64,000 nt of DNA, from NCBI GenBank assembly GCA_964016885.1, contig OZ024741.1, forward strand, positions 172,298,001-172,362,000, in the 5' to 3' direction. Below, piece by piece: positions 3,903 to 55,855 of this stretch. The stretch comes from Eledone cirrhosa. Its lineage: Eukaryota. The position numbers and the translations under genes were made by a program. The notes beneath the pieces were generated by a model. That model did no database searches. It was not told the DNA's origin and saw only the letters and a list, made by a program, of their open reading frames with translations. Within the stretch, counting starts at the first letter, position 1; each line of letters opens with the position of its first letter.

Positions 3903-3936
3903 GTGGTCTTTCCCATCTTTTCCACTCCATTTCAAC

Positions 3937-6900: not shown

Positions 6901-7040
6901 TTGACTTTTTCAAATTTCATTTGAAAAGGAAAATCAGAGTAGAGAGGGAAGTGCTCTCTTCCCAGCATTTTGTTGAAAGATGGGTGAGAGAAGCAAGAAT
7001 GGCCCGAGTGAATGGGCCTACTCTGAGTATATATCTGTAA
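3937..7040 (+). pseudogene. Tx1-like ORF2 (APE endonuclease - reverse transcriptase - zinc finger), frameshifted
   Basis: IGSINARGL, GDWNG, SYLDRV, TDHK, GPGYWKLN (APE); KSPGLDGLP, DQSKAFD, SVRQECPLS, AYADDV (RT); CPRC..ETVLHALIQC. Confidence 0.92.
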
Positions 7041-9408: not shown

Positions 9409-9899
9409 TAGATGGATAGATAGATAGATAGATAGAGAGATAGAGAGATAGAGAGATAGGTAGATAGGTAGATAGATAGATAAAGTACTGTGGCGGTGAA
9501 AAGCTTTCCATTAAAAATAATTAGAGTGAATAATATATACGATATATACATCTTAATTAAAAAAACAACAAAGAATGAAGAAACAATCTGAGAATGATAG
9601 ACATTTAAATCTATGGTAATCAATGTAGAAGGTTATTAACATGTTAGAATTAGCAATCAAATATCTCCCTCAAAATAATTGTTTCTACTTTTGGCACAAG
9701 TCCAGCAATTTGAAGGGATGGGGAAATCAATATAAAGGTAGTTGTTACAGATGCACACAATTCGGCTTAATGCTTTAAAATAAGTTGAAATGAAAGTTTC
9801 ATTCTATCTTCTGATCTTTCTGCTATACATGATTACATATATTCATTATTTCTTTAAGGTTTAATTTAAGCGAAGCCCTTATTTAGTCTTTGATATTGA

Positions 9900-11900: not shown

Positions 11901-11940
<40 letters not shown>

Positions 11941-11942
<2 letters not shown>

Positions 11943-13262
11943 TAATTTAATATATCTATTAACATAAGCGCACAGATGTACGCTAATGCCAGCAAATACA
12001 CAGGTTATGTCATAGTACCTAGGTGGTTCAATGCAGGAGGATGCAGAACAATAATAAAAAAGACGTAAAATAAGAAAAATTAAAAAAAAAAATTTTAGAA
12101 AAGGAGTGAAAATTTTAGTAAGTAAGTTAATTTTTTTAAATTTTTTTTTTTAATTTTTCTTATTTTACGTCTTTTATATTATTGTTCTGCATCCTCCTGC
12201 ATTGAACCACCTAGGTGCTATGACATAACCTGTGTATTTGCTGGCATTAGCGTACATCTGTGCGCTTATGTTAGTAGATATATTAAATTATCTATATTTA
12301 TCTCCAAATCACTGATTTGTCGAGCAAACCTGCCAAAACCACTACTAAATTGTTGGTGTGTTAGTAGGCGTCTGTCTTCTTACCATCCCACACCCACCGA
12401 CTAGCCTCAGTGTCACGTGATTGATTCTTTAGAATCGGCCATTTGACCTGTGGCAGCGAGATTTTCCGTGCTTGGAATCCAGTCCCCGATAGCTGTTCCA
12501 TTTACCGAATTATTATTATTTTTATATGAGTCCCCAGTGTCCGCGAATTGCCTGGAGACTTGGCTGAGAATAGACTTCCCTGATGACGCAATGAAATTCT
12601 CAACAGTTCATTACGTAACTGTCTTTATCCCATTGCAGAAACTAATTAGTTGGAGTGAAAATTTTAGTAAGTAAGTTATTTTTTTTTTATTTTTTTTTTA
12701 AATTTTTCTTATTTTACGTCTTTTATACTATTGTTCTGCATCCTCCTGCATTGAACCACCTAGGTACTATGACATAACCTGTGTATTTGCTGGCATTAGC
12801 GTACATCTGTGCGCTTATGTTAGTAGATATATTAAATTACCTATATTTATCTCCAAATCACTGATTTGTCGAGCAAACCTGCCAAAACCACTACTAAATT
12901 TTTTGTGCGTTAGTAGGCGTCTGTCATTTTACCATCCCACTCCTACCGACTAGCCTCAGTGTCACGTGATTGATTCTTTAGAATCGGCCATTTGACCTGT
13001 GGCAGCGAGATTTCAGTGCTTGGAATCCAGTCCCCGATAGTGTTCCATTTACCGAATTATTATTATTTTTATATGGGTCCCCAGTGTCCGCGCATTGCCT
13101 GGAGACTTGGCTGAGAATAGACCTCCCTGATGACGCAATGAAATTCTCAACAGTTTATTACGTAACTGTCTTTATCCCATTGCAGAAACTAATTAGTTAG
13201 AGTGAAAATTTTAGTAAGTTAATTTTAAAAAGATTTTTTTTTTTAATTTTTCTTATTTTACG

Positions 13263-13961: not shown

Positions 13962-15897
<1,936 letters not shown>

Positions 15898-16480
15898 ATA
15901 TATATATATATAATTGGTTATGCACGAGTGCATTAATGTTTTCCAGGACACAGTGTTATGTACCGTGTAGTGGAATGTCAGCTTACAACAGAGTGGTGCT
16001 CAACGCAATGCAGAAAAAAGGTGTATATTCCAGTTTAGCTATATTCCGGGGCGTGTATAAGGAATTAAAAAGAACAGAAAGATGCAGTAAAAGAGATTTA
16101 TTCGGTTCTTACGTACGTTTCAATAGACATCAATTCGCCTAGATCTCGCTACATCTATAATATTATATATTTAGTAGAGCATTCGATATCCAATGCACAA
16201 TCGATCCCATATCATCAGAGATTATGTCACTCTAGAAAATATACTTTATATATATAAACACTAGGTGGTAATAGTGGCGTAGGAAGAATACTTTTTCTAC
16301 ATCTGAGTATGTGTGTATGTGTTTCTATCGTGTATTTCTATCGTGTTAGTGGTCCAAGGTTCAGTGGGGGTGGAAGGACCGAAGGTATAAACAAGGAATA
16401 AGTGATTTGGGGTCCAGTTATAATTTGCGGTATGGGAGGAGAGAGATATAGGATTTGTCAAAGAAATTGTATGTCTACGC

Positions 16481-19400
16481 ATTGTATGTCTACGCCATTT
16501 TTATTCAGTCTTTCTATATATTTATTTATTTATTTGCTTGTTTGTTTATTTTATTTTATCTTCTTTGCGCATGCATTTTCGTGTGTGTGTAGTGTTTTGT
16601 TTGATGTGTGATGGGTGACTAGTGTGTGTTTATGTGCTTGGTGTTATTGTGCTTGTGTATGTATTTATTTATTTATTTATTTATTTATTTATCTACTTAT
16701 TTATACTTCTCTTAGGTCAGTGTTATTTGTTTGGGTGTTGTTGTTATTCCATTCATTCTTTCTGTTTAGTCTTGGTCTTCTAATTTCTATTTCACTGGCC
16801 TCTCTGATTTGCCTATCTGCTGGGTCATTTCTATGTTTAGATATTATTCTAATTTCTATGTTGTCTATGTTACCGTCATGTTGTTGTCTAGCATGTTCGT
16901 ATAGTACTGACCCGTTTTTTCGTCCTTTTAGTTCCCCCCAGTGTTGGTGTATCCTTTCACCTATGCTATGAGCTGTCTCACCTATGTATGCTGTTGTCAT
17001 GTTTCTGAAAGTACCCTCTGTACATCTTATTCTATAGATTACGTTTCTAGTTTTACAGTTTATCCGGGGGTTTACCTTACATATGATACATTTCCTATTG
17101 GTACAGTGGGTTTTCTTAAAAGGGTAGGTTTTGCTGATCAGGGATTTTATGGTGGTTCCTGGCTTTTCTACCACCTTCATTTTTAAGTGGGTCTTTCTCA
17201 GGGCCTTTCTACACTGGTTAGCTAATTTCCCTCCAGGGATAGCGTCCACAAACATGACACTCAGGTATCTCTGGTTGTCGTACCATGAGGTGGCTTTCCC
17301 TATCTTATGTCTAGCCCTATCTAAGCTATTCCATGATTTGCTCCTGTATAATGGGCAAATTCTTTTCATGTCCAGTTCCATGAGGGTCTTATACTTCTCC
17401 ATGGCTCCTTCGTATACTCTGACTCTGTCTCTTTGGTTGTAGCCAGAGAACTGCATGCGGTTGATGAAGTGTTGGGTGTGTCTTTCCATTTCTGTTGGGT
17501 CGCACATGCGGGACACATTCTTCATCACTCGTACCAAATCTGCGATCAGAATATTAAACTTAGCACTACTGGCCATTGCTGAGTTTTTGAGTATCAGGTA
17601 TTTGGAGGCCATGGGTTTAGCATAGTGTGAGTGGAGAATTTGGGCTCTCTCGTCTATAGTGTTAATCCAGAGTTCTGTGTCTAATACAGGTAGTCTGCTG
17701 TTAGGGTGTTTGGAAGGGAAGTCGATAGTTACAGTTATACTCTGGTGTATGGAATTAGCTATCTGCTGGATGCTTTCCATTGTGCTACGTTCTAAATCAA
17801 ACTTGTTAGTGCTCTCTAGTGGGGATGTTCTTATAACTATATTGATATCGTCTACATATCGAGAGTACATGATGAGGTCTATGGAGCTCTGATTAAGGAG
17901 ATCTTTAAGTCTCCTTTCCCACCATACCATGAAAAGGTTGGCAACATCACCAGCTATGCTGACACCAATGGCTGCTCCCTCATTTTGGGTGTAGATCTTC
18001 TCTTTGAACTTAAATATGTGGCCCTTTAGGGTAGTTTTGATACTAGCCCCTATTGCATGTGCGACCATTTTTCTTACCTGATCATTGTTTTGGGGGGTCC
18101 GTATAGCTTTGGTTCACCCAATCCACCTTCCCATGGGAGTCTTTTTTGCCATTGAGGTTATGGTGGCGGGTCTACCTCTTATGGGTCTACTAGGGCAGAA
18201 ACGTCTAAGGTCATGGCTGTCTAGGTAGTCAGTGTCGTAGGTAAGTCTAAGTAGGAGGCCCAGTTCGTCTGTGTCGACGTCACAGAACTCCACCTCACTC
18301 TCAATGATCATCTCCACACATCTTTTCACAGCAAAATCAATGTTAATGGATGGGTACAGTGACACCACATCCATGCTGCCTATTATGCAGTTGGATAGGT
18401 TCCTGTTTTTGTTGCACTCACTGATTCTGCTGAGGAGGTCCTCTGTACTGTCACATACATCTGGGGACATCTTGATTATGGGGCGTATAACCATTGAGAG
18501 GAAGTAGGAGATCCTGTAGTTACTAGCTATATTAGCTCCGCATACGGGTCTTGTTGGAGGTCCTGTTGTCGGGTCGTCGACTGTCTTGTGGTCTTTGCGG
18601 AGCCCATACAAAGGTGGTATGCCATTGTTAGACGCCTGGAAGTTGTTGGCAGTGCGTCTGCTTGGCTTTAGGATGTCAGTCCACATCCTCATGTGAGCGT
18701 TGAGGATTTTCTCTATCCCATCGTGTGTTTGTTGTGCAATTTCGCTCGTGTTGGTGATGTGGGGTTGCATAGCCCTGATGTAGTTCGGCATGCTATCTAT
18801 TGACATCCTACCAGACTTATCCGTGGGTAGACATACTACCTCACCATCCCTTGTGCGCTGCTTGAGGCTAACCAAGCCTTCTACAGGTTTCCTCCCAAGT
18901 TGTTGGGCCTCTGGTCTGCTCTGTCTCTTATTATACCTGTCTACTATTTGTCTAACCTTATTTCTAGCTATGGTAAACTCTGCCTCTGTCTCGTCATCTA
19001 TTTGTTGTGGTATGCACACTCTTTTATTAAAGGGTAACCTCATAGGATAGATATTACCCATCTTATATGTTTTGTCCGCTGGGTTGAAAAATAGTTTCTC
19101 TAAGGGGTTGTCATTATATCTATCGTCATAGTTGTGTGTGTTGCAATTATTGTTATCATGGTGGTTGTTGTTGTTCCTATCATTAGCATTATTATTATTG
19201 TTATGATTGCTAGATGTATTGTTGTTTACTTCACCGTTATTGTTGTTGTTACTGTTATTTCTACTATTGTGGTTGTTACTTTTATTATGTTTCTTGTTTT
19301 TGTTGTGTCTATCATTGATGTTGCTACATGTACTATTTCCATTATTACCACTGTGGTTATTGCTGTTGTTGTTCGTATTGTTACCGTTATTACTACTGTG

Positions 19401-20088
19401 GTCGCTGCTGCTGTGTCTGTGGTTAATGTTTCTATTATTATTATTATTATTGTGGTTGTTGTTGTTCTGTCTATCGTTAGTATTGTTACCATTATTACTG
19501 TTCTCACTTTCCTGCTATTGTTATTGTTATGGCTGTTATTTCTATTTCTCAGAGTTATTGTTTATATTACTACTACCGTTATTATTGTTGTTGTTGTTGT
19601 TGTTTACCTTTGCATTCCAACGTATTTTTGTGAAACACTTTTCCAGCTCCGTTTTGCACTCCATAGGGTGCACTCCATAGGTCTTTTTGTAGATGGCAAA
19701 TTTTGGTGGTAGCTGCAGGATTTGTTGTTCTTGTTCAATGATTAAAGTGTTCCCATAAATATTTACTGCAAATAAATAAATAAATATATAGACAGACTGA
19801 ATAAAAATGGCGTAGACATACAATGCAGCGGGAGGAAACGATAGCACCAGTGACGATGTTGCAGATGTGCAACGAAAGATTTATGATAAACTATATATAT
19901 GTGTTTATGTCTATATTGTATCTGTATTATTTTTGACCGTCGGTCAGTCAATGGCAACATTGAGGACCGAGTAAGTTAGATTACCGATATAAAAGACACA
20001 GAAGCGACAAGCGAAAACTAACCAAACAGTGAGTGTGTTCTGTTATTAATTCTGGCAATATTACACAAATATGACCCTCCCCAAGTAT

Positions 20089-21684: not shown

Positions 21685-23085
21685 CTACCAGCGGATGCTC
21701 AGAGTATTTCCATCCATTCGGATCATTCTCGCTACATTCACCCACCATTTAAACAGTGAGCTGAAGCACTTCTCTCTCTACCCTCACCTTCCTTTCCAGA
21801 TGGAAAGGTTGATGAGAGTTTCGCTAAAGAGGAAAGTATCTGTCTTCAGTCCTTTCAGTCACGTCCACCACACAATCTCTTTTGCTAAAATCATCAGAGA
21901 GAATACTGCCTGCCCCTCTCGACCAAAAGAAAGCGGTGGGGTCGTCTTCACAATGGAGTCGGCTGATAGGCGATAATAGCCATTCAACAAAATTCCACAA
22001 GTCAGAAATACTGGATGAATGCGGGCAGAACGGTTTCGTCATTCCGTGCTCATCTTCGACAGTTCTGTCTCACATCATTAACGTATCTGAAGAATGTGTC
22101 TCGAACTGACAGTACTCCACCCCAGTAGCACTGCCAAGTAACCCCAAGGATTTATGGAAATTGTCAATTTCTCGAACGATCTCCCGTATAGATTCGCCAG
22201 TTGAAATTAGTCGACGCCCAGCTTTTTTTTCGTGAACGTCGTCGTAGTTTTCTATGGAATGCTAACATGGAATTTAAACTGACCGCTTTGTCCGACTGGT
22301 AGAGGACAGTGTGTGTCTAACAACATTCAAGTTGCCAGACGCCAAGTTTCGGTCTTCGCTTGACACAACAATTGCATCTTGGTCAAAGAGACGAGCTGCG
22401 GAACGACGTCTTGCAAATGGTGTCCACATCTGTTGACCGTTTAGGAATATCTGGAGATCCCGGAGCCTCACCGCATGTTTGTGCATCATCAGCCCTGACA
22501 TGTCCAGTCCTCCGCGTAGAGGATGTTGGCAGCAGATGAACCGCTTCACCAGCGAAACATGTTCCTTACACAAGCAAGAAGTTGAAGAGCAGACGCTCAA
22601 ATTTGGTGAGGCGCGAACGGAGACAAGGTATCTCGGTCAAGCAGTAATAGAATATGGACGTGGTGTACGCGTTCACCATTTTTGCCCGACATTTCATGGA
22701 TAGGATTCTCTCGACTCATTTCTGGGTGAAAGTTACGACGCTACACGTTACTTCGTACCATTTCTTATCCACATGGAGGTCTGGATCACCTTCGCTATTG
22801 TTCACACCCAGGACCAATAACAAAACCTTTACGTACAGGAAGATCCTCCATACTTCTAGATCCAAGCCTTTCTTAAACAACACTTCCACCCCGCCTCCCA
22901 TTCCAGACCCACTAAAGTATGCATAGATCTTAAAGTCGTTAAGAATGGAGGCTAGAGCATGTGTCGGAAATCCTGGTCTAGATGACGACAGTAACATCGA
23001 TAGCAAGTGTAGTGATATGACATTTTTGAGCAAGCGGCTCCAGAACATACCCAGATCACCTACATTTATACCCTCCTCTTAGAAT
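21685..23085 (-). mobile_element. Old, internally deleted Tx1-like LINE remnant
   Basis: APE start (YFSGSGMGGGVEVLF) joined directly to post-RT region (PDLHVDKKWYEVT, ICCQHPLRGGL). Confidence 0.75.
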
Positions 23086-29260: not shown

Positions 29261-29773
29261 GGCAAAGATGATGTAAGGAAGATGTTGGAGATGGGAGAAA
29301 ACGCGTGGATATGTGAGCATGTTTTGTCGAAAGTAGTAAGATAAGTATAGAAAGACTCTCGCCTACCAAACGGTTTTCTCGCCACTTCTCGCAGTAAGCC
29401 ATGTTTGTTTGCAAAAATCCGTCTGACAAAAGATTAGGCTTTATTAATTTTAAAACAAGCGTAGCACTGATTTGAGAAACTTGTAATATTTATAAATAAT
29501 TATACCTCTTCAGGCATGTCTCTCTACACATTTGGATATTCATATACCTATATTATCTGCGTATATGATATATATATCTATATATATCTATCTATATATA
29601 TATATATATACATGTATATATATATTAAAATTCAAATATTAATAAAGTAGATGTTCTCGTGATCAATAAAATTTTATTATAAACATTTCAGAGATACTTG
29701 AATCAGGCTCAACAGTACGTCCTCGTCAGATAAAATAAAATGATACATGACATACCCTGAGATGTTAGATGGT

Positions 29774-31031
29774 TAAGCCCCGCCTGACTGCGCTGGAACG
29801 TTTGCTCTTTCGCTTTTTATGGAAGGGACCCGCTCCGATGGTCAGGCGGTCCATCTGCTGTCAATACCCGCTACGTGGAGGGCTGGGAATACCGTGGCTG
29901 ATGATGCGCAGACACGCGCTCAGGATACGACATCTCCACCTCTTCCTCGACGGTGATCAGGTGTGGTCGCCGTTTGCTAGATGCGTCTTTCCCCAGCTCA
30001 TCCCCTTGACGGAGCTGCAGTCCTGGGTCAAGCGAAGACCGAGAGGGAGCGCTTGGAGACTGGAATGTCTTCAGGCGCTCACAGCCCTCGACCAATCGGG
30101 CAATGTGATCGGAGGAAACTCCACCTTGGCGTTCTATAGAGGATTAGTGGAGGGGAAGAGCGACAACGTACTTGGAGAAACTCTAGGCGTTGACGAAAAT
30201 CAATTAGCCAATCTCTTTGGAAGGACTTTCGGGCCGGGGCCTATGGACAACTTCCAGAAATCCCTGGCCTGGCAGTGCTACCGGGGAGCTTTGCCAGTTC
30301 GGAATAAACTCTACAAGCATGGAGGTGCCGTCAGCCGAGCATGTCCGGGATGTGCGCAGGGCGACGAAACCGTCCTGCACGCACTCGTCCAGTGTCCGAG
30401 CATTGCTGACTTGTAGGTTTATGTCGAACACTTGCTGTCGCGTGTGGGACGGATCCAGCTGTCAGCTGAGTCCATCGTGAGGATTGCCCCGCCCTCTTCC
30501 TTTAGCCGGGAAGGGCAGGTAGTTTTTATCTGTCTGGTGGCCATGGCCAAAGAGATAGTATGGTGGACGCGTTTGAAAGGGCTGAAGACGAGCACTTACC
30601 TCTTCGGTGATGCCCTGATTAACTTTTTCAAATTTCATTTGAAAAGGAAAATCAGGGTAGAAAGGGAAGTGCTCTCTTCCCAGCATTTTGTTGAAAGATG
30701 GGTGAGATAAGCAAGTATGGCCCGAGTGAATGGGCCTACTCTGAGTATGTGTCTGTAAATTAAAGGTGGAAAACTGGGAGAGGGCACTTGCTCTGGTGGT
30801 CAGGGTCACTGTGGCTTTTTAATGGGCTTTCTCCACGAATGTCCCTCGGAAGTCTTCCCCCTATTGGGGGATTTTTTTCATTGTTCTATTATTACATCCT
30901 CTGTTTCTTGTTATTTTTACACGCAGAAATGCCCATTTGTACCGCCCTGTATTGTCCTGTACTGTCCTTAATGTCTACTTTATGTAAACCCTTGTGGTTA
31001 ATAAAGAACTCATTATTATTATTATTATTAT
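29774..31031 (+). mobile_element. 5'-truncated Tx1-like LINE copy
   Basis: Highly similar to 6224-7330 and 35358-36645; ends in (ATT)n. Confidence 0.92.
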
Positions 31032-33548
31032 TGCTCTGTTCGGACGTCTTTTTGCTCGCTCCCAGCGAGTCGCTTTATTTACCTGGTATAATTATTTGTT
31101 GTTAAATGTTTCTTGTTGTGTAAGAGATATAAGCCCTTAGACTTTGTCCAGTGAGGGAGAAAGTATAATATTTCGGCCTTTTGGCCCAAATATTTGAATA
31201 TTTTACTTTTAAAAATATTAAAAATAAAAACATGGCTAAGCCACGCCCCCCAGCAATATGTCTCCTGTCATGTGAGAACGGCGGAAAAGTCGCGAGGAAG
31301 GTTACAGAAACTGATACAACAAAGACCACCACGGTAACAAAGACAGCAATGACAACAACACTGAGAACACTAATTTTTAAAAAATTACCACACCAACTAC
31401 AACAACAACAGCGACAACCAAAATACAGACAACAGAGAAAAATAACAACAAATGCAACCACGATATTAACACCACTAACAAGAAAATAAACAACGACAAC
31501 AGCAACAATACAAATTGCACCGAAAACAACAACAACGGTGGCACCAAAAACACAACCAAGTACAACAGTGATAACAGCAACAATACCAACAACACCGTTT
31601 GTAGCAGTAGCAACAGCACCAACAACAAGAGCAGGAGCAGCAGTAGCGGCAGCAATAGTGGTGCCGCTGAAAAAGGGGCCACTTCTTTCGCAGGTGTGGC
31701 CCGAAATATAGAAACAGTGCTAGTCACGGAGGAGGGGATGGCAGTCGCAAGGGCCATAGTGACAAGAAATGACAATAGAGTTTCCCTGAAACCTCCACCC
31801 GATCTTTTCAAAGACCAGAAGCTACGCACGATGACTTACCGCACCGTAAGCAAAATGTCACATCGGGTGGAGAGAACCACGGAGGCTCAAATCCAAAAGG
31901 CCTTGGTGTGCGTCTGGCGCGCAAAACCCACATCACCCGAGGCAAAAAGTATGCCGCAGTAGACGTACTTTTCGCCACCCCTAAGAGGCGAAGTCTCACT
32001 CTTTGGAAATCCCAAAGAGTGATGAGATAGTCCTGGTGCCCTCCTACTGCGGGCAGAAAATTGTGAAGGTCAAAGTGACGCAGGTCCGGCTCGACGTACC
32101 CATACATTGGCTGGCCGCGTCTGCACTTGCTGGAATCGAGGACAGGACCACCATACTTTAAATACAGAGAATTGGAAGAGAGAACTGGTCATGTATAGGC
32201 ATGCAAATGCTAATACAAACTGACCAGGAGTGCATCGAGGCCATCCCAGATATCATAGACTCCAATTCCCTATAAGCGTGGAACGAAGGCGCCCAAAGTG
32301 CTATCTCTGTTGGCAAAAGGGTCAGCTTAGGGCCTTCTACCCGCAGAAGACAGCCAAAAAGTGGGGCTACTTCCTTCTGACGCCTGATCCGCTGCTACCA
32401 AGAGCAGGGCAGGCAACAGAGTCAGAAGACACTTCCATGGTGAGTAGGAGAGCAACGTCCGTGGCACCCATACCAAGGCTACGGACAACTAAAACAGCGG
32501 CAGCAGTGGCGGCAACACTCAACAGTCGCTGTAGCTACACCGGGGGCAATGCTGTGGCTGATGATGCGCAAACACACGCTGAGCCTGCGACATCTGCGAC
32601 ATCTCTGGTGCTTCCATGACGGTGAAAAGTTGTGGTCACCGTTTGCCAGACGTGTTTTTCCCCAGCTGCAGTCCTGGAGTAGGAAAAGACCGAGGGATAG
32701 CGCTTGGAAGCAGGAATGTCTCCAAACGCTCACAGCCTTCTACCAGCTGAGCACTAGTATCTGTGGAACATCCATCTCGGTGTTCTATAGAGGAATAGTG
32801 GAGGGGAAGATGACGACGTACTCGGGGAGACCCTGGGCGTCGAAGACGATCAGTTGTTCGCTCTCTTCAAGAGAACTTTCAGCCCGGGGCCTATAGACAA
32901 CTTCGTTCAGTGTCCGAGCATTGCTGACATGTGGGGCTATGTCGAACATTCGATGTCACGTGTAGGACGGATCCAGTTATCGTCTGAGTGCATTGTGCAG
33001 ATAGCCCCGCCATCCTCCTTTAAGGAGGAGGAAGCGCAGGCAGTTTTCATCTGCCTGGTGGTCATGGTGAAAGAGATTGTATGGCGGACAAGGTGGAAAG
33101 GATTGAAGTCGGGCACTTTCATCTTCGGCGAATCCCTGATTAACTTATTCAAATTTCACTTGAAGAGCAAAATCAGGGTGGAGAGGAAAGTGCTGTCTTC
33201 TAGTAAGTTTGTTGAAAGGTGGGTGAAAGTGGCGGGTCTGGTCCGAGTGAACGGGCCCGCTCTGAGTATGCGCCTGTAGACTGAGGAGTGTAAAACTGAG
33301 AGAGGGCGCCTGCCCTGGTGGTCAGGGTGGTCGTGGTCTTTTGTGTGGTTTTCGCCACGAGTGACTCTCGGAAGTTTCCCCTCTATTGGGGAATTTTTGT
33401 TGTTTGAATTTTTTTGATATTTCTTTCTTGTTATAACCTTTTTTACACGGCCAAAACCCACTTTGTATCGTCCTGTACCGTTCTGTGCCGTCTGTAATAT
33501 TTTCTTCATGTTAGCCCTTGTGGTCAATAACGAAACCATTATTATTTT
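31032..33548 (+). mobile_element. Tx1-like element retaining ORF1 and the ORF2 C-terminus but lacking EN/RT
   Basis: ORF1 homology (TYRTVSKMSHRVERTTEAQIQKAL; RRPKCYLC) joined near 32545 to WLMMRKHTL..FKFHLKSKIRVER; Tx1-type 3' UTR. Confidence 0.82.
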
Positions 33549-33690
33549 CTAGCAGAATGGCCCAACGTTGCTCGGGATTTGCTCTAGGGTTCTTATATAT
33601 TTGATATATATTTATCCTTATTGAGCCTCGTGAAATAAATATGTTTGTTCATATTTTGTTATTGTGTATGCAAAAATATACAAGAATATA

Positions 33691-33730
<40 letters not shown>

Positions 33731-33841
33731 TAACAGATTAAAGTTTAAGCAAAGAATCGCTGCTTTCATCCTTAACGAGATCTTCTGAAACTAAAATCAA
33801 TCAATCTGTGAACGCAGAAGTATATTTCGAAAAACGTTACA

Positions 33842-33913
<72 letters not shown>

Positions 33914-34019
33914 TATATATATACATATATATACACACACACACACAGGTAGCGACGTCAAAATATCGTAATAAAGGCAGCTAGACATACAGACAGATAT
34001 TATATCTATATTTCTATCT

Positions 34020-34200
34020 AAAAAGAAAGACTAAGTATTATAGAGAGTGATCGCTAAATCGCCTAATACGGTCCCTAGGTCATTGAAAATTTGAAATTAT
34101 TTTTCTCAAAACACTCACAAGACCATAAGTGTTACATCTGTAAAGTTTCAAAAAAGTCGGTTGGGTGGTTCTCGAATTTTAGGGAGTCAGTCAGACAGAC
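34020..34200 (-). mobile_element. Helitron/DINE-like non-autonomous fragment
   Basis: Minus strand GTCTGTCTGACTG..CCAACCGACTTTTTTGAAACTTTACA resembles 42190-42260. Confidence 0.4.
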
Positions 34201-36587
34201 GGACTGCCGCGGCTTTCGGCCACTGAGGCAGAGTGTTGCGAAAAGCCGATAACAACCGCTGAAGTACGGGAGGCAATGACTGGCTGCACAAGGGGTAAAT
34301 CGCCTGGTTTAGATGGTCTGCCCTATGAACTTTACGTACAAATGCCAGACTTGTTCGGAGGCCTCTTGGCGGACGTCTACTGCAACTGGCAACAGAACGG
34401 GAAAATTCCCAGCTCTGTGAGCCGAGGAGCGGTGGCGCTGCTGAGAAAGGATCCGAACAAGGGGGATAACATAGATAATTTTAGACCCATAACTCTGCTA
34501 AACACAGAGTTCAAGATTTTGGCCAAGGTGCTAGCAAAGAGGTTGGCGCTTGTGGATGGTGGTCTGGTGGGAGAGGCACAGACATGCGCCATTCCCGACA
34601 GATCCATCCACGACAACCTCATGCGATACATCGTAGAGAGGGTAGCTAGGGAACCTGGCACGGGTGGGTCTTTGATCAATTTAGATCAATCGAAAGCCTT
34701 CGATAGGGTCGACCACGTTACCTAGCGGCAGTCCTGAGGGCGGCTGGCTTTGGGCCCGTCTTCAGAGGCTGGATCGCTGCCATGCACAGCGACATCTGCT
34801 CTGTAGTGAGAGTGAAGGGTCACCTTTCGGAACCGTTCAACATCATGCGCTCGGTCCGCCAAGGATGTCCCCTCTCGTCCCTACTGTACGTATTGACTCT
34901 CGAGCCATTACTGCACAAACTGGAGACGTTGAGGGGGGTCCCGCGCGAACTAGGATGCGGAAGATCCGTGTCAGCATATGCGGACGATGTCACCGTAGTG
35001 GTGTCGAACGCCAAACACATCGAGGCGATGGGCACTACACTAAGAGAATACGAAGCGGTGACAGGAGCAATGATCAACCAGGAAAAGTCAGTGGGCTTGC
35101 AGCTCGGCACCTGGAGAGGCAGGTCCATGCCGTCCAACAGCGTCGTCGGGCGCTGGACGGACGGACCGGTTAAATTGCTAGGGGTCTGGTTCGGTCCAGA
35201 CCTCCAGACGGACAAAAACTGGGACGAGGTGACGAGCAGGGTGGCTTCTCTCACCCAGAAATGGGCCGAGAAGAAGCTATCCCTGAAAGGTCGAGCGGAG
35301 GTGGCTAACGCGTACATCGCGTCCGTCATCTACTAGCGCCTGACCGTCGTACCTTGTCCTAAGCCCCGCCTGACTGCGCTGGAGCATTTGCTCTTTCGCT
35401 TCTTGTGGAAGGGACGCGCTCCGATGGTCAGGCGGTCCATCTGCTGTCAACACCCGCTACGTGGAGGGCTGGGCATGCCGTGGCTGTTGATGCGCAGACA
35501 CGCGCTCAGGCTACGACATCTCCACCTCTTCCTCGACGGTGATCAGGTGTGGTCGCCGTTTGCTAGACACGTTTTTCCCCAGCTCGTCTCCTTGACGGAG
35601 CTGCGGTCCTGGGTCAAGCGAAGACCGACAGGGAGCGCTTGGAGACTGGAATGTCTTCAGGCGCTCACAGCCCTCGACCAATCGGGCAATGTGATCGGTG
35701 GAAACTCCACCTTGGCGTTCTATAAGGGATTAGTGGAGGGGAAGAGCGACGACGTACTTGGAGAAACTCTAGGCGTCGACGAAAATCAACTAGCCAATCT
35801 CTTCGGAAGGACTTTCGGGCCGGGGCCTATGGACAACTTCCAGAAATCCCTGGCCTGGCAGTGCTACCGGGGAGCTTTGCCAGTTCGGGATAAACTCTAC
35901 AGGCATGGAGGTGCCGTCAGCCGGGCATGTCCGAGATGCGCGCAGGGCGACGAAACCGTCCTGCATGCACTCGTCCAGTGTCCGAGCATTGCTGACTTGT
36001 GGGTTTATGTCGAACACCTGCTGTCACGTGTAGGACGGATCCAGCTATCAGTTGAGTCCATCGTGAGGATTTCCCTGCCCCCTTACTTTAGCCGGGAAGG
36101 GCATGTAGTTTTTATCTGTCTGGTGGCCATGGCGAAAGAGATAGTATGGTGGACACGTTTGAAAGGGCTGAAGACGAGCACTTACCTCTTCGGTGATGCC
36201 CTGATTAACTTTTTTAAATTTCATTTGAAAAGGAAAATCAGGGTAGAGAGGGAAATGCTCTCTTCCCAGCATTTTGTTGAAAGATGGGTGAGTGAAGCAA
36301 GTATGGCCCGAATGAATGGGCCTTCTCTGAGTATGTGTCTGTAAATTAAGGGTGGAAAACTGGGAGAGGGCACTTGTCCTGGTGGTCAGGGTCACTGTGG
36401 TCTTTTAATGGGCTTTCTCCACAAATGTCCCTCGGAAGTCTCCCCCGTATTGGGGAGTTTTTCTTTGTTATTTTATTTCAACCTCCGTTTTTTTTACACG
36501 CAGAAATGCCCATTTGTACCGTCCTGTATTGTCCTGTACTGTCCATAATGTCTACTTTATGTAAACCCTTGTGGTTAATAAAGAAAA

Positions 36588-36646
<59 letters not shown>
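34201..36646 (+). mobile_element. 5'-truncated Tx1-like LINE copy (RT to 3' end)
   Basis: KSPGLDGLP, FRPITLLNTEFKILAK, VRQGCPLS, AYADDV, zinc finger; (ATT)n tail 36589-36646. Confidence 0.93.
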
Positions 36647-38193: not shown

Positions 38194-38239
38194 GGCCGTC
38201 CTGACGAAGGCCAGTCAAGCCTGAAATGCATAGACGGTT
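38194..38239 (+). ncRNA. Minimal type I hammerhead ribozyme motif
   Basis: ggCCGTC-CTGACGA-AGGC CAGTCAA GCCT-GAAAT-GC-ATA^GACGGtt; canonical core; palindromic ATGCAT. Confidence 0.85.
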
Positions 38240-38350
38240 GTTCCCCTTGTTTCTTTAGAAATACGAAATTTTTATACATATGTGTATAAATCTATGCTTG
38301 AAGCGAAATCTTATATATATATATATGCTCATATATATGTGTGTGTGTGT

Positions 38351-40194: not shown

Positions 40195-41669
40195 ATTAAT
40201 TAGTCACAGGGGCCGACATATAGGGGACAATACAAAGACAGGGACGGTGTTGGTTTACAAAAATATGGAGTAAAAATACACAATAACATAAACAATTAAC
40301 AATAAAAATATATGAAATATATATAAATATACCAAAATAAATTCCTCAAAGGGGGGGGGGGGGTGAACCACCCAGGAACGATTCAAGTACCTCACCAATC
40401 TTGAACAACCCGACTTTTCGAGGGCATTCGAGAAGGGAACACCTCCTCCTTAAATTAACCAGCCTGCAAGCATATGCTCAGAGTAGGCACAGTCACACTG
40501 GCTATTCTCGCCACATTCACCCATCTTTTATCAAATGTAGTGGAGGGAAGCACTTCTCTCTCCACCCTCACCTTCCTTTCCAAGTGAATATAGCAAAGTT
40601 GATGAGAGATTGGCCGAAGAGAAAAGTGTCTGTCTTTAGTCTTTCAATCTGGTTCACCATACAACCTCTTTCGCTACCACCACCAGATAGAGGAAAACTG
40701 CCTGTCCTTCCCGTCCAAAAGAAGTAGGTCGATAGCAGGATCTGTCCTACACGCTACAGCATCTGTTTTGACAACTCCATAAGTCAGTAATGCACGAACA
40801 CTGGATGAGTGCATGCAGAACGATTTTGTCACCCTGGGCGCATTTCTAGCGGGTCCGTCTGACAGCACTTTCTTGCCTGCAGAGTTTATCTCAAACCGGC
40901 AGTGTCCCCCAGTGGCAATGCCAAGCGAGGGACTTCTGGATGTTATCCAGAGTCCCCGGCTAGAAGGTCCTCCTGAACAGACTGATCAGTTTGTTTTTGT
41001 CGATGCTCAGAGCCTGTCAGATACTCTGTCGCACATGCCACCACTAAATGCTTTATAGAACTCCAGAGTGGAATTTTCACTGACCGCATTGCCCGCTTGG
41101 TAGAGGGCAGTGAGCGCATGGCAACATTCCGGATGCCAGGCTCCCAGACTTTGTCTCTTCTTGACCTAAGACTGCAGCTCAGTCATAGAGATGAGCTATG
41201 GAAAAGCCTGTCTCACAAACGGCGGCCACACATGTTCACCGTTTAGGTAGAATATCTGGAGATGCTGAAGCCCCAGCGCTTCTTTACGGAACTGTAACCA
41301 CGGTATGCTCAGCCCTTGGCATAGGGGATGCTGGTAGCAGATGGACCACCTCACACACAGAACATGTCCCTTCCACGTGAGGATGAAGAGAACCTGTTCC
41401 AATTTGACGAGGCAGGAACGGAGGAATGGCACGACGGTCAAGCAGTGGTGGATGACGGAGGCGATGTACTAGTTCACCACCTTCGCTCAACATTTCAGGA
41501 ACAGCTTCCTCTTGGTCTATTTCTGGGTGTGAGTGGCTACCCTGTTCGTAACCTCGCCCCAATTGTTATCTGCCTGGAGGACTGGTCCGAACCAAACCTC
41601 GAGTAACTCTGCCTGTCCATCCGCCCAGCGCCCAATGACGCTGTTGGAGACGGCATGGACCTACCTCTC

Positions 41670-43017: not shown

Positions 43018-43400
43018 CAAAAGTTTTATTTAAAATTGTTGGGTTACAACGAATAAATATTTTATAACTGATATAAAGCACTCAACAAGTCTTGGAGTAG
43101 ATATACGATATTAAACAAATGGAAACTATATTTATAAAACCATATTTATTTCATTATACATATTTCAGGGATACCATATTAGAAATATGGCATGCCTTCT
43201 TCAGATAAAATACTACCAAACCAACTTTTTTAACTGGAAGTTGAACAATATTTATGGTACGTCAAATTTATTTATAAAACTGCTTATATATTGTATTTTA
43301 TCTGAAGAAGGCATGCCATATTTCTAATATGGTATCCCTGAAATATGTATAATGAAATAAATATGGTTTTATAAATATAGTTTCCATTTGTTTAATATCG

Positions 43401-43402
<2 letters not shown>
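43018..43402. mobile_element. Fold-back pLTR of the 50830-54282 PLE family, hammerhead-like core on both arms
   Basis: Arms about 43105-43212 and 43293-43402; CTGAAGA-long stem II-GAAA at 43302-43343; stem I weak. Confidence 0.85.
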
Positions 43403-43427
<25 letters not shown>

Positions 43428-44264: not shown

Positions 44265-44301
<37 letters not shown>

Positions 44302-44342
44302 AAAACTTAATAAACGGCATCAATAACCACATCCAATTCACA

Positions 44343-45299
44343 ATGGAATACAGCCAAGATCAACTCCCATTTCTGGACATCTTAATCTTAAAAAAAGACA
44401 CAAATATCGAAACTGACATACACTACAAACCAACAGATTCCAAACAATATCTGCTATTCACCTCCAACCATCCAAAGTACACGAAGACGAACATTCCTTT
44501 TAACCTAGCAAGAAGAATTTGCACAATTGTCTCCAATTATGAAACGCGAAATAAAAGACTTCAAGAATTAAAGGAAACTCTACTCGAGAGAGAGTACCCA
44601 CTATTACTAATAAATAATGGAATAGAAAGGGCTAAAGCAATAGGCATTGATGAATTACGGAAACAGAAACAAATTCAAGGTACGTCCAATATTCTATCAT
44701 ATATCTCAACACACAACCCAAGAAATGCGGAAGCTTACAACACTATTCACAATAACATCCCACTACTAAAACAAAACCCAAGAATGAAAAAAGCCCTTGA
44801 AACACAAAAAATAATCAAAAGCAAAAGACAACCAAAATCACTGAAAACATTACTCACCAATGCCAAATTACCTACCACAAACCCACAACCAAGTATCAAA
44901 AAATGTGGTCGCTCTAATTGTGGAACCTGCACTCACCTCATTGAAAGCAACACGTATACATTTAAATCAGGACAAAATTTTACTGTAAAAAATCACTTCA
45001 CTTGCTCATCAAAAAATCTGCTTTATGCCATTAAATGTAAAGGATGCAATGAAGATTATATAGGACAAACTAAACTCACACTCAGAAACAGAATGACAGT
45101 TCATTGCCAACAATTACGAGATCCAACCACGAGACAGATACCACTAAGTGCACATCTAGACATTTGCGCAAATAATAAAACACCCAAATTCCAAGTCTTC
45201 CCATTTTACCTTTGCGCTAACAATACAACAGAACAAATGCGAATAAATAAGGAAAATATGTTTATTCAAAAATATAGACCAACATTAAATATGGTTTAA
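44343..45299 (+). pseudogene. PLE RT thumb + zinc finger + GIY-YIG endonuclease (N-terminally truncated, frame open)
   Basis: HIQFTME..LPFLD..TDIHYKPTD..SNHP; CGRSNCGTC; LLYAIKC..YIGQT..LRNRMTVH. Confidence 0.9.
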
Positions 45300-46670
45300 T
45301 ATACATTATGTCAACACCATAATATGACATACACACACACACATAACACCTTCTACTTTAGAAAATAAAAATACCCGAACTAAATAAACCTTAACATACG
45401 TTTGCACTGACAATACAACAGCAAACACGAATAAGTAAGGAAAATATGTTCATTCAAAAATATTCCTACTAAAGGAATCACTTTCCTACACACACACATA
45501 CACACACACAATATATATGTATATATATTCTCTTCATCTTAACATGCTAACCATACTCCCACACACATAACACCCATACACACACATAACAACCCCCACA
45601 CCCACAACTCCCTCCCCATTTCTACTAATAGAACCACTTTCCTACACACATATATATACACACACACAAAATATATATTCTCTCCATCTTAACATACTCG
45701 CACACACACACATAACACCCATATACACACACACACAACTCCCTCCCCCATTTCTACTAATAGAATCATCTTCCAATACACACATACACACACACACACA
45801 CATACACACACACAAGCACACAAATAAACATACATATCTTCACTTTAATAGAAAATCTGAACTCTGACACCCCAGCGAACTAACCATATTCACTGAACCA
45901 TAACAATTCTCCCAATCCCATTTCTCTTGACCACTATCTTTCCATTGTCATAACATTCGCTATAAAGGCTACAGAATAGTTTTCCAAATAAGGGCGCAAA
46001 AATGTAATGAAAACTTGTTCACGTGACAGCCAAATTTCATTTATAACCAATCAAATCACGTTTATTAAAAAAAGCCTTCGTGAGCCACCTTTTTTTAAAG
46101 TAAAGAAATTCAAACACACACACACACACAACACACACACACGCGCACACACACACAAGCACACAAATAAACATACATATCTTTACTTTCTTTATTCAAT
46201 AGAAAATCTGAATTCTGACACCCCAGCGAACTAACCATATTCACTGAACCAGAACAATTCTCCCATCCCTTTCTATTGACCATTATCTTTCACTTATCAA
46301 AAAATTCTCTAAAAAGGCTACAGAATGGATTTCCAAATAAGGGCACAAACATTTAATGAAAACTTGTTCACGTGACAGCCATAATTTCATGTATAACCAA
46401 CCAAAAAGAAAGCCTTCGTGAGCCTCCTTTTTTCAAGTAAAAAGAAATTCAAACACTCATATATGAAAAAACAACCTGTGACAACCCCTCCTATTATTTG
46501 AAGAACTATTGTAACGCGAACTGGCGCAAAATTTATTATAATTATTGACAAACCAATCAAATTACTTCTCGAAAAACCTGGCATTTCGAGCCACTTTTTC
46601 CATATAAAACAAGTAACATTCAAAGACCAACCAGATGTGAGAAAAACCACAGACCCTCCATTTCAACTCA

Positions 46671-46708
46671 CCTTTTGAAAAGCAGAAGAACTGCGAAACC
46701 GGTAAAGG
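46671..46708 (+). ncRNA. Minimal hammerhead ribozyme motif, U3-A8 core variant
   Basis: CCTT-TTGAAAA-GCAG AAGAA CTGC-GAAAC-CG-GTA^AAGG. Confidence 0.78.
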
Positions 46709-46852
46709 AACCAAATAAATATATATATATTTTTTTTAAATAAGACTCCTGTTGCATTTTCGATTTCATCTCTTTTTTTTATACTTTCACTCGTGTAGGA
46801 CACCTCGGTTATTTTTCATTTTGTAAAAAAAACCTCACTTTCTAAAATATAC

Positions 46853-47646
<794 letters not shown>

Positions 47647-47763
47647 GTATATATATGTATATATATATATGTGTGTATGTAAAAGGTAAACAGAAATAAC
47701 GACACAATCGGTACAGTATATGGAAGGTAATATTAGGTTAACGCTTGATATAGCAGGAAGAGG

Positions 47764-47799
47764 TCTTAACGTTTCGGACGCTAGTCCTTCATCAGAAGA
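47764..47799 (-). ncRNA. Minimal hammerhead ribozyme motif (loopless stem III)
   Basis: TCTT-CTGATGA-aGGAC TAGC GTCC-GAAAC-GTT^AAGA in the sense 3' end of the PLE. Confidence 0.8.
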
Positions 47800-48031
47800 A
47801 AGAATGAGAAATAAAATAGATTAAGGGAACGGGCGGGATGGAATTGGAAGAAATGTGTTTAGATAAAAATAATAGGTCCATTCATGTTGACATCTCTTGC
47901 AAAACTGCTGCTGCTGGCGTTTTGTGTATGATTTGTTTTTTAGGAAAGTGGATGATGGCGCGCGTCTACCTGAAACAGAAAAAAACTGTTTTGTTAAACG
48001 AGCTATATTTGAGCACGTGCGTAAGCATGAG

Positions 48032-48187
<156 letters not shown>

Positions 48188-49584
48188 ATACGTCCGTATG
48201 AAGCTAAGAAGAAATGTTTGTGTATATGTGAGTAAAAGAGTGTGTGTACATGTAAGTACGAAGCTATGAGCAACGAGAAAGCGATACGAATCTAGGGGTG
48301 TGATAAAGGACGAGGTATTAGAGAAATTGGGGAGGTGAGATGAGTCCAAGCGGGGAATATGACCCAAGACAGTGAATCAGACTTGGTTCAATCCTGGTGC
48401 GAGAGGCCTGTGATCCATGATGTAAAAGGACACCCAGGACTGAAACATGTAGGGAAGAATGACCAGGAGAACAGAAATGACGGGCGACAGGAGTATCCAA
48501 TCCGAGTCGTATGTCCCTCAAATGTTCGGCAAAACGGTCCGCCATACGGCGTCCCGTTTGTCCGATATATAAAGACCCGCAAAGGGAACACCGGAGGGCA
48601 TAGACAACGTGGGTGGATGTGCAGGTGAAGGAATGGCAGATACGGAAAGACCCGTCAGGGCCTGTAAGAGTGGTGAGGGTGGAAATAAAGGGACAAGTAT
48701 TGCAGCGGGAACGGGAAGAAGGATGAGAGCCGGGTGGAGTCGTGGGACAGGACGAAACAGAACTGCGAACCAGGAGGTCGCAGAGGTTTCTGACGCGCTT
48801 AAAAGCAGTAATGGGTGGTTTTGGAAAAAAGCGAGAATTGACGGGGTCAGAAGACAGGATACGGAAGGAACGGAGGATATGTTGCCGGAGTGGTAGGGTG
48901 CTGGAGTGGTAGGTGAGGGAAAGGAACACGGGTGTTGGGAGGGCGGGCGTGAGGTGAGAGGGCTGTGGTGCGGTCTATTTCACGGGCGCTGGTGAGAGCA
49001 GCTTAGATCAGGGAGAGGGGACATCCACGCTGGATGAAGCAGGAAGCCATGCGAAAGGATTGGCTTTCGAAATCGTCGTCCTGGCTACAGAGACGACGAA
49101 GACGGAGGAATTGGGAATAGGCTATGGAGTGTTTGGTGTGGGTTGGATGGGAGGAGGTGAAGTCGAGATAAGACTGGGAGTCTGTTGGTTTAATGTAGAT
49201 GGAAGTAGAGAGGGTGTAGTGAGAGTGATTAATAGATAGAGAGATATCTAGAAAAACGACAAAAGAATCGGAGACGGAGAGGGTGAAATAGAGAGCAGGA
49301 AGGAAAGATTGGACAAAAGAAAGAAAACAGTCGAGCTGTTTTCGTGATAGAGAGGTATGTATGTATGATGTATATATGTTCATATACACATACATACGTA
49401 CGTATATATATATATATATATATATATAAATATATATATATATGTACGTATGTATGTGTATATGAACATATATACATCCCCTTGTTCATAAAGATAAACA
49501 CTAGACTCTGTAAAACAGAGCTATGAATTTCGATGTTAAATACCCGTCTTACTCATACACGTGCGGGGTTCATTATTAAATTGA

Positions 49585-49878: not shown

Positions 49879-50262
<384 letters not shown>

Positions 50263-50779: not shown

Positions 50780-50829
<50 letters not shown>

Positions 50830-50831
<2 letters not shown>

Positions 50832-51241
50832 GATATTAAATAAATGGAAACTATATTTATAAAACCATATTTATTTCATTATATATATTTCAGGGATATC
50901 ATATTAACAATATGTTATGCCTTCTTCAGACAAAATACAATATAGACAGTTTTATAAATAAATAGATTTGACATACCTTTCAACATCGACTTGCATTTGA
51001 AAAGTTGATTTGGCAGTGAAAATTGTAAACAGAAAGAAAGAAAGAAAGACGGAAAGAAAGAAAGAAAACGAAGAAAAGAAATGCATGCAACTAAATAGAG
51101 AGATGGAAAGATAGATAAAGAAAAGAACTTCATGTAAAGAAACAGAGAGAGATATATAGAGAGAGGAAATAGATAGAGATAGATATATATAGAGAAAAGT
51201 AGGTAGTTGAACATCCGTTGAATGACGTATCAATGATACAT

Positions 51242-51272
<31 letters not shown>

Positions 51273-54200
51273 GCTCTAGTATTAATGTAAGGGAGATATA
51301 TGTGGTTAGGAGAGAAACCAGCCGTTATATATAGAGAAAAAAATGAAAAGTAACCAGACATAGGCGAGGCAGAATTTAAAAACCCTATGTTTCAATGTAG
51401 AAATATTAGTTCGTATAAAAACAGGCACTATAATGTAAATATCAGTATTCATGAATGAGACACGTATCTATAATGTGTGAAAAGTAATGATCTTATGTTT
51501 AGTTTTAAAAATTCATATGTTTATATCATAACTACAAACATCGATGTGAATTTACGTGATCAGCACTGCAAACTCCTATTTCACACGGAGAACATTCTCA
51601 TTGTGCTATAATATTTAAGTATACATATATGTGTATATATACACATATATATAGAGTCTATATTAATTTTAACAATACTATTCTTGTCTTTACTCTACAT
51701 GATTATCTATCAAGCAGAAATAGAGAACAGATTTCAATATATTAATAAAAATATCAGAAACAAAAACAAAAAATAATAATAAATAAATAAAACAGAAAAC
51801 TAAAAAATATTAAATATTAAAAATAAAAATATTAAAAATATTAAAAAATATTAAAATAATAAAAATAAAAACATAGTATGCCACGCAAATCGACCACAAA
51901 GATCAACCCTTCAAAGTTAATTGAAAATATATTGCCAAGTTCATTATAAGCATCAGTGTCGAAAACAGATAAAACCAAAAATTATTTACCAAATCCTGTC
52001 TAGCAGAAATCATTTCAAAAGTTTAGGATACCCATTTGGTCTACATATGTTCTTATATTTAATATAGAAGTTTATCTAGTGTAACATTTATTCGATATAT
52101 TTGGAGCATCAACTTTTAGGGTAGTTTAATTTTTCATGAAGAATGTTTAAAATAAAAATAAAAAGAAGAATAAAAAGAAGAAATCGAAAGATTTATCGGC
52201 TAGTTTCATAAATAATTACAAATCAAACTAAATATACTACATTTTAAATTTAAATTTATATTTAAAAGTTGAGTTCAATCTATGTTTGCAGCAACTGAAT
52301 AAATTTGTCCGTAGATTAAGGGAATTTTTAGATTTTAGTATAAAGAATATCTCCTCCGCGCAGAGGTCACATGTCTCAGAGGATGAATTAAAAGGAATCC
52401 CTCTTGAGACTATATTCCAAGCCGTCGAATATCTAACGTTATCATGCCTAAGTTGCCAGAGTACGCCTGATAGTGCTGTTGAAGATTTTTTGCTTGGATC
52501 TGTGAAAGAATTCTTGTGGTTATTATAGCGAAGTTTAAATTCCGTCGATGTGGAACCAACGTAGTTAAAAGAATTAAAGTCCGTTTTAACATTACAGTTG
52601 TATATTATATTTTTAACTAAGCAGTTGTTATTTAACGGACATTTAGATCTATCTCTACAGTTACATTTGTTAACTTGTATATTATTTATGCTATTATCGC
52701 TAGGTTTTAAGTTCCTATTATTTATTCTATTAATATTTTGTGCTAAATTTTTGGTGGATGAGTAGGTTAATTTTATAGTATGTCTATTGAAAATTGAGTG
52801 ATACCTATGTGTTCTAGGGAAGCGATTATCAAGAGCTTTAAAAAATAGTTTAGCGATGTGGGTGTTAATGTTTAGTGAGAAAGGGGGGGCAAACCATATT
52901 ATGTTCCTAGTTCTATTTCTTTTTTGGCTTTTGGAATTATTGTAATGCTTTCTATTATAGTTGTTAAGGTTGTGGCCGTAATTAAAATAGTTGTTATTTT
53001 GTTTAGTTTGTCTATCATTATCTATGTACATAATTTTATCACTATATCCTGCTCTAGCTAACGCTTCATTGTAGTACTGGGCTTTTTCGTCGAAAATCTT
53101 TCTATTAGACGAGATTCTAGAGATACGTTTTTGAACAGAGTTTACTATAGTAATTTTAACAGATCTGGGGTGGTTAGAGTTAAAGCTGACATAGTTTAAG
53201 TTTTCATTCAACTTGTGAAATGGATAGTGAAGACATGTGTTGAGATTTAATGTTATATCTAGTAAATTGACTATTCTATGGTTATTCTCAATTTCTATTT
53301 TTAGATTAAAGTAATTAAAAAATTGTGTAATTTGTTTTCTTTTTCTATTTAGTTCAGAGTTATTATTATCAATAAGTAAAAGCATGTCATCTCTATATAA
53401 ACCTCCGGTAGTACCAGGTATTTTCCTATGCAGCGAATTGATTAAAAATAAGCCCACAAGGTCAGTTACCTGAGCTGAGTAAATTCACATCGATGTTTGT
53501 AGTTATGATATAAACATATGAATTTTTAAAACTAGACATAAGATCATTACTTTTCACACATTATAGATACGTGTCTCATTCATGAATACTGATATTTGCA
53601 TTATAGTGCCTGTTTTTATACGAACTAATATTTCTACATTGAAACATAGGGTTTTTAAATTCTGCCTCGCCTATGTCTGGTTACTTTTCATTTTTTTCTC
53701 TATATATAACGGCTGGTTTCTCTCCTAACCACATATATCTCCCTTACATTAATACTAGAGCTAAATAAATAAATAAATAAATGTATCATTGATACGTCAT
53801 TCAACGGATGTTCAACTACCTACTTTTCTCTATATATATCTATCTCTATCTATTTCCTCTCTCTATATATCTCTCTCTGTTTCTTTACATGAAGTTCTTC
53901 TCTTTATCTATCTTTCCATCTCTCTATTTAGTTGCATGCATTTCTTTTCTTCGTTTTCTTTCTTTCTTTCCGTCTTTCTTTCTTTCTTTCTGTTTACAAT
54001 TTTCACTGCCAAATCAACTTTTCAAATGCAAGTCGATGTTGAAAGGTATGTCAAATCTATTTATTTATAAAACTGTCTATATTGTATTTTGTCTGAAGAA
54101 GGCATAACATATTGTTAATATGATATCCCTGAAATATATATAATGAAATAAATATGGTTTTATAAATATAGTTTCCATTTATTTAATATCGTAAATATAC

Positions 54201-54279
54201 TCCAAATACTTGTTGAGTGCTTTTATATCAGTTATAAATATTTACTCGTTGTAACCCAACAATTTAAATATAACTTCCC

Positions 54280-55063: not shown

Positions 55064-55679
<616 letters not shown>

Positions 55680-55800: not shown

Positions 55801-55855
55801 ACTGCCTGAAGAGGTCACAGCCAAAGATGGCTGTCACTGAAATATATATAGCAGT
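55801..55855 (+). ncRNA. Type I hammerhead ribozyme motif
   Basis: ACTGC-CTGAAGA-GGTcACAGCC AAAGAT GGCTGTcACT-GAAAT-ATAT-ATA^GCAGT, inside an about 330-bp insert between microsatellites. Confidence 0.85.

Follow-up and report, generated by a model that had tools for sequence, protein, structure and literature searches.

A hammerhead-shaped RNA motif with a U3-A8 core in a Penelope-like element tail from Eledone cirrhosa

Natural covariation of the 3-8 core pair to U3-A8 has been reported in several hammerheads and is cited as active in vitro (Perreault et al. 2011, PMC3088659). These covariants carry the same compensatory change as the motif described here; the available part of that paper states no tie to Penelope and does not include the present sequence. 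The variant was also described in Penelope pLTRs, with about 1,300 motifs in Schistosoma mansoni (Cervera and De la Pena 2014, PMC4209133). According to the accessible portions of that work, the Cercyon hammerheads of S. mansoni are likewise of type I, lie in the pLTR and have a U3-A8 core, and the supplement row Schistosoma_mansoni(4) shows the identical heptamer UUGAAAA, whereas S. japonicum has CUGAAGA. The same source reports that minimal Penelope hammerheads show weak activity as dimers and none as monomers. Since the U3-A8 variant and its Penelope setting are already in print (2011, 2014), the novelty implied by a preliminary description of the present locus is not supported. No paper on this particular Penelope family was found in the literature searched, which did not include Lunse et al. 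2017, where similar variants may be listed.

Elements of the Neptune/Nematis type share with the present one a C-terminal GIY-YIG with CCHH, a CX2-5CxxC linker and a pLTR hammerhead, as well as inverted truncated copies and insertion in microsatellites (Craig et al. 2021, PMC8557442, available sections). The Poseidon element of Anolis carolinensis also has a pLTR hammerhead, in which the 3-8 pair was demonstrated by compensatory mutants; it differs from the present motif in its C3-G8 core and in overlapping the start codon, and its cleavage required the element's protein (Frangieh et al. 2024, PMC11167929).

The window analysed, 64,000 nucleotides of animal DNA, is rich in microsatellites and crowded with fragments of retroelements. 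On its forward strand, at 46671-46708, lies a minimal type I hammerhead motif of 38 nt. Its stem I consists of a 5' arm CCTT (46671-46674) and a 3' arm AAGG (46705-46708), giving 4 bp, and the core TTGAAAA occupies 46675-46681, with U3 at 46675 and A8 at 46680. It is followed by stem II, GCAG/CTGC (46682-46685/46691-46694), with 4 bp and a 5-nt loop, by GAA (46695-46697) and by the palindromic 6-nt stem III ACCGGT (46698-46703, A15.1 to U16.1). The predicted cut site is the GUA triplet ending in A17, with cleavage after A46704. The general core NUGANNA...GAAA...UH is represented by TTGAAAA, GAAA and GTA, the 3-8 pair is Watson-Crick as U3-A8, the topology is that of type I with a short stem I, stem II opens with G10.1-C11.1, and the ACCGGT palindrome permits a dimer. 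The extra base between positions 9 and 10.1, which minimal Penelope hammerheads usually though not always have, is absent, as stem II directly follows A9. This base is also absent from a C3-G8 relative (L002, see below) and from an Apostichopus-type row ending in 'japonicus' in the accessible supplement of PMC4209133, so it is evidently not required.

The Schistosoma motifs, as far as the published rows at hand go, resemble this one further in their short stem I, their palindromic positions 15-16 and their copies, often on opposite strands 100-700 bp apart (PMC4209133). In contrast to them, the motif at 46671 has a stem II of 4 bp and no extra base after A9. Its stem III, a palindrome of 6 nt, is like that of the 'variants' which the same source shows for Drosophila, rotifers and shrimp. 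Residue 17 also differs, being A in the present motif, where it can pair with U3, and U in the Schistosoma row.

The 38-mer was found exactly as the preliminary description gave it, in three copies: 46671-46708 (+), 55382-55419 (+) and 55275-55312 (-). A strict type I descriptor matched four times in the window (the three copies and a C3-G8 motif at 38201), against a single match in total in 100 dinucleotide shuffles, and a 24-letter pattern matched three times against none in 100 shuffles. The counts are thus far above those of shuffled sequence. The motif was also predicted to escape a canonical search, and this was borne out: an Rfam search of 46600-46800 returned two matches at E up to 10, neither of them a hammerhead, and no hammerhead was present among the 150 listed of 184 matches over the window. 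The Rfam matches in the window were discarded as microsatellite and hairpin noise.

Upstream on the same strand lies a 5'-truncated Penelope-like ORF (44301-45299), which begins at a (TA)n tract and encodes the end of the RT, the thumb, a CX4CxxC linker and a GIY-YIG domain with CCHH (PF01541, E 1.6e-7). In lacking the RT core and in having a long probable 3' UTR with internal duplications, this copy differs from the described Neptune/Nematis elements (PMC8557442, available sections), and because the RT core is missing it is not autonomous. Its linker, CGRSNCGTC, fits the CX2-5CxxC pattern before GIY-YIG, with three cysteines invariant or among the listed positions; by this linker, as described in the accessible part of PMC8557442, rather than by a tree, the element appears to be of the Neptune/Nematis type.

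Of 2062 longer candidate proteins, 80 matched the ORF at E up to 1e-20, their lengths being 588-906 aa. In 57 of these 80 relatives PF00078, the reverse transcriptase family RVT_1, was present. Where relatives are named, their sources are molluscs or the bins of mollusc symbionts, which makes a mollusc host likely. Four Penelope-like proteins under symbiont names (P0017, P0035, P0045 and P0066; Thiodiazotropha, Solemya gill symbiont) are located on contigs of 3-4 kb, and such proteins under bacterial names are likely host DNA in bins.

The hammerhead follows the ORF by 1.4 kb, a longer gap than the 120-450 nt of relatives, which show the identical order of an RT and GIY-YIG ORF and then a hammerhead on the same strand. 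Judged by position, the stretch 45300-46636 (+) is the probable 3' UTR of the ORF. It contains (AC)n tracts and internal duplications, in which 45207-45275 recurs at 45397-45463 and a 349-bp tandem covers 45771-46459. Run alignment showed that the sequence from 46465 onward belongs to a repeat family; across 45300-46464 the ORF and the hammerhead are probably linked, a connection drawn from position only. Taken together, the tail of this Penelope-like element contains a genuine small RNA motif of hammerhead shape. The hammerhead reading of the preliminary description stands, and the element carrying the motif, which it had left unnamed, can be added.

The motif is contained in a pLTR-like unit (46637-46846, +), which measures about 210 nt and stops at a (TA)n tract. 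A solo copy of this unit, 91% identical to 46637-46845 and also ending at (TA)n, occupies 55348-55569 (+) and includes the hammerhead at 55382-55419. A shorter, inverted copy (55192-55346, -) includes that at 55275-55312, and both are arranged head-to-head about a one-base axis at 55347. Such an arrangement has been described for Penelope pLTRs in PMC3846280 and PMC4209133. The three copies in the window are probably inert, since one trails a truncated ORF and read-through of the other two in a single transcript would trap both in a long hairpin.

Non-LTR retrozymes form head-to-tail tandem arrays in which every repeat, of 150-400 nt, carries a single hammerhead. No such tandem was formed by the pLTR-like copies, which were dispersed or head-to-head.

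Metagenome contigs were scanned for loci related to the ORF. Seventeen were obtained, and in six of them the match, at 39-49% identity, covers almost the entire ORF; the other 11 match it only in part and were left out as comparators. In four of the six (L001, L002, L004 and L006) a C3-G8 hammerhead with a 6-nt palindromic stem III was found 120-450 nt after the ORF, that of L001 being spotted by eye, and in L001 and L006 stem III is the same ACCGGT. The motif of L005 has C3 opposite U8, a mismatch, and no hammerhead was found in L003. Weak matches at L003:1892 and L007:629 were rejected, as they fall inside the ORF and have implausible stems. The contig of L001 carries an exact repeat of 1655 nt at its ends (1-1655 and 3700-5354), with the hammerhead present twice, like a tandem or circularly assembled Penelope-like element. 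A degenerate core pattern had no matches in the metagenome contigs, and scans for related loci gave 23 stretches in prokaryote genomes and 29 in viral contigs, none of which was confirmed.

In an alignment of eight rows (five relatives, the motif at 46671 and two other hammerheads of the window), the 3-8 pair was C-G in six, U-A in one and mismatched in one. The overall covariation scores of this alignment were set aside as evidence, because the descriptors that picked rows demand stem I, the patterns or the eye behind three rows demand the 3-8 pair, and row 8 is misaligned. The other hammerheads within the window, which belong to other families, are all C3-G8. Because C3-G8 is found in four of six relatives with the same architecture, the U3-A8 swap can be read as compensatory, in agreement with the preliminary description. 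The family appears to have changed both letters yet retained the pair, the direction from C-G being suggested by the general hammerhead consensus rather than by a tree.

The preliminary description had also argued, from the identity of three copies, that the variant is a family trait and not decay. That argument is weak. Only six of 135 columns vary in the three-copy alignment, and the probability that none of them lands in the 38-mer is 0.13; moreover, the two copies near 55 kb are not independent, because they are the arms of one head-to-head palindrome. Invariance among the three copies was consequently rejected as proof of selection.

The trait itself was established from public sequencing runs. 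Four of 22 runs were aligned to 46465-46845, a comparison that covers sequences at least 80% alike and in which more distant subfamilies are invisible. In run X1 (4674 contigs), three A>G and four T>C places were present at 2% or more, all of them at positions other than 46675 and 46680; the variant places listed were 24 of 29, and the remaining five are of kinds other than A>G or T>C. As all A>G and T>C places are accounted for elsewhere, neither T>C at 46675 nor A>G at 46680 reaches 2% in X1. Two other organisms are represented by runs X5 (7 contigs) and X9 (2 contigs), and in both a hand count showed no change at either position. For X20, a set of 3126 raw reads, 40 of 116 variant places were listed, among them four of the eight A>G and seven of the 17 T>C places. 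Neither position is in this list, so that a minor C3 or G8 subset is possible in that run. U3 and A8 are therefore the family majority in reads and contigs of three organisms, and U3-A8, not CTGAAGA, is the norm for this Penelope-like repeat family in X1, X5 and X9 and, among the places listed, in X20.

These counts also dispose of the reading in which the resemblance is due to chance, or in which the copies at hand decayed from a CTGAAGA consensus. The value of 0.13 for three-copy invariance and the lack of an Rfam match speak for it; it is refuted, within the 80% identity limit of the run alignment, by four strict matches against one in 100 shuffles and by the U3-A8 majority in three organisms, and it retains next to no probability.

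The claim of a perfect stem I, CCTT/AAGG, was correct for the three window copies but does not extend to the family. The outermost pair is altered on its 5' side in a large subfamily: 46670 A>T occurs together with 46671 C>A in 40% of the X1 depth and in about 80% of the X20 reads. For stem I the run comparison covered the 5' arm only, the 3' arm lying inside the skipped stretch 46704-46745, so the 5' change may or may not be compensated.

Folding of the 38-mer was predicted with probabilities of 0.70-0.74 for stem I and 0.83 for stem II. The active fold of the monomer lies at +0.7 kcal/mol, against -6.4 kcal/mol for the minimum. When a dimer was modelled, the ACCGGT palindromes paired between molecules at 0.92-1.0 and stems I were exchanged at 0.60-0.65, the double hammerhead being 1.4 kcal/mol above the dimer minimum. 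A competing U3-A17 pair was predicted at 0.56 in the monomer and 0.46 in the dimer; it lengthens stem I across the cut site. The gap of 1.4 kcal/mol corresponds to this extra pair, which would hide the cut site and depends on the combination of U at position 3 with A at position 17. In a context of 94 nt, copy 1 kept a stem I probability of 0.08 and copy 2 one of 0.35; in the whole unit the value was 0.02 or less. In a modelled transcript across the palindrome at 55 kb, stems I and II were both at 0.0, and the two motifs would be absorbed in a long hairpin.

The reading preferred here, with a probability of roughly 0.7, is that of a minimal hammerhead of a Penelope-like family with fixed U3-A8, which in intact elements would cleave slowly after GUA and only as a dimer. 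Stem III seems too short for closure in one molecule; two ACCGGT palindromes would then pair (6 bp) with stems I exchanged, giving a double hammerhead. The U3-A8 pair would preserve the Watson-Crick geometry of the 3-8 pair, and by analogy with the anole element, cleavage may need help from the element's protein.

It is also conceivable, although unlikely, that the motif is a relic of the same origin, in which U3-A8 was fixed by a family that spread without cutting and whose short copies came from uncut RNA. Both changes go toward A+T, and the genome is rich in A+T. Every short copy extends across the predicted cut site and hence derives from uncut or re-joined RNA. The competing U3-A17 pair and the weakness of stem I in context point the same way. 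In the anole element, according to the accessible part of PMC11167929, catalytic mutants leave insertion in vitro unaffected and RNA read ends are absent from the cut site, and Naiad elements thrive without canonical hammerheads (PMC8557442, sections at hand). However, a double change that preserves the pair, with the other core letters, the stems and the palindrome intact, is what would be expected under selection on the active fold, and among the 24 of 29 variant places listed for X1 no variant above 2% reverts or sits at the core.

The start of the repeat unit was also considered. A TATAAAA (46603-46609) and an initiator-like CCAGATG (46631-46637) are found 30 nt apart on the forward strand and mark a possible transcription start. 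The X1 depth rises about threefold from the bin 46621-33 to 46647-85, fold-back joints occur at 46632/46635 in both X1 and X20, and both copies at 55 kb start at the position corresponding to 46636-37, a starting point shared by many copies of the family. The chance of a TATAAA in the 11-nt slot is about 0.02, for a match noticed after the fact, and no conservation of the TATA/initiator spacing was seen by eye in relatives. From these sequence features, it is possible that this point is the transcription start of the family. If 46603-46637 holds the start site, the short copies would be transcripts copied uncut to their 5' end.

As a further alternative, the letters may be kept for a role at the level of DNA. 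The odd palindrome CTTTTGAAAAG (46672-46682) could be a putative protein-binding or promoter element, with the hammerhead shape inherited and secondary. This palindrome, some 40 nt downstream from the putative start, requires both U3 and A8, and Penelope promoters are located inside the pLTR (PMC2377424, portion consulted). Such a role is nevertheless very improbable, given that C3-G8 relatives without the CTTTTGAAAAG palindrome retain the hammerhead anatomy and that the same heptamer carries different flanks in Schistosoma in the rows available (PMC4209133).

A more speculative and rather doubtful reading is that U3-A8 together with A17 acts as a tuned brake through U3-A17 pairing. The ribozyme would be slowed to the point that short RNAs from the upstream TATA/initiator are reverse-transcribed uncut and fold back, and the pLTR would have given rise to a very abundant, SINE-like family of 210 nt with a fixed start. 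If true, this would tie a change in a ribozyme core to how a Penelope family spreads.

Taken alone, the motif is of little significance, since the variant and its setting are in print. It adds a further case, apparently an independent one, of a Penelope lineage that has fixed U3-A8 next to relatives with C3-G8. The U3-A8 family and its C3-G8 relatives, two of them with ACCGGT, nevertheless form a natural pair for asking about selection to cut and about cutting speed. For the role of Penelope hammerheads (PMC8557442 and PMC11167929), a family with so many copies and so sharply defined a 5' start could help to show whether uncut RNA is the template in vivo.

Several other elements were observed in the window. 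A second Penelope-type family forms a head-to-head palindrome at 43098-43408, with C3-G8 hammerheads at 43204 (-) and 43302 (+) that have a long stem II and an AT palindrome as stem III. The same family provides the hammerheads at 50929 (-) and 54093 (+) of an element at 50823-54268, in which a Penelope-like ORF (52237-53484, -) is placed between long inverted repeats (438 nt at 100% and 304 nt at 99%). At 47757-49485 (-), broken pieces of a Penelope-like ORF (48318-48974 and 49003-49485) are followed by a minimal C3-G8 hammerhead with its core at 47795 (-) and a 4-nt ACGT stem III. Solo C3-G8 hammerheads of different families occur at 38194-38240 (+), 55801-55855 (+) and 29670-29736 (-). A long Penelope-like RT and GIY-YIG-like ORF covers 16701-19514 (-) in two open stretches, beside which the descriptor search found no hammerhead; its asparagine-rich N-terminal part recalls the N-rich inserts of rotifer elements.

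A LINE-like RT family whose copies end in (ATT)n is represented by several decayed copies, at 4565-7335, 29769-31047 and 32444-36624, and by inverted copies near 8637-9632, 22575-22785 and 40777-41648. A near-perfect, GC-rich hairpin of 106 nt (49955-50060), flanked by (TA)n tracts, is perhaps another fold-back insertion; a related start occurs at about 23424. Finally, short units in alternating inverted and tandem order, with 171-nt arms and a 431-nt period, were found between (TA)n tracts at 11932-12850 and 14440-15899.
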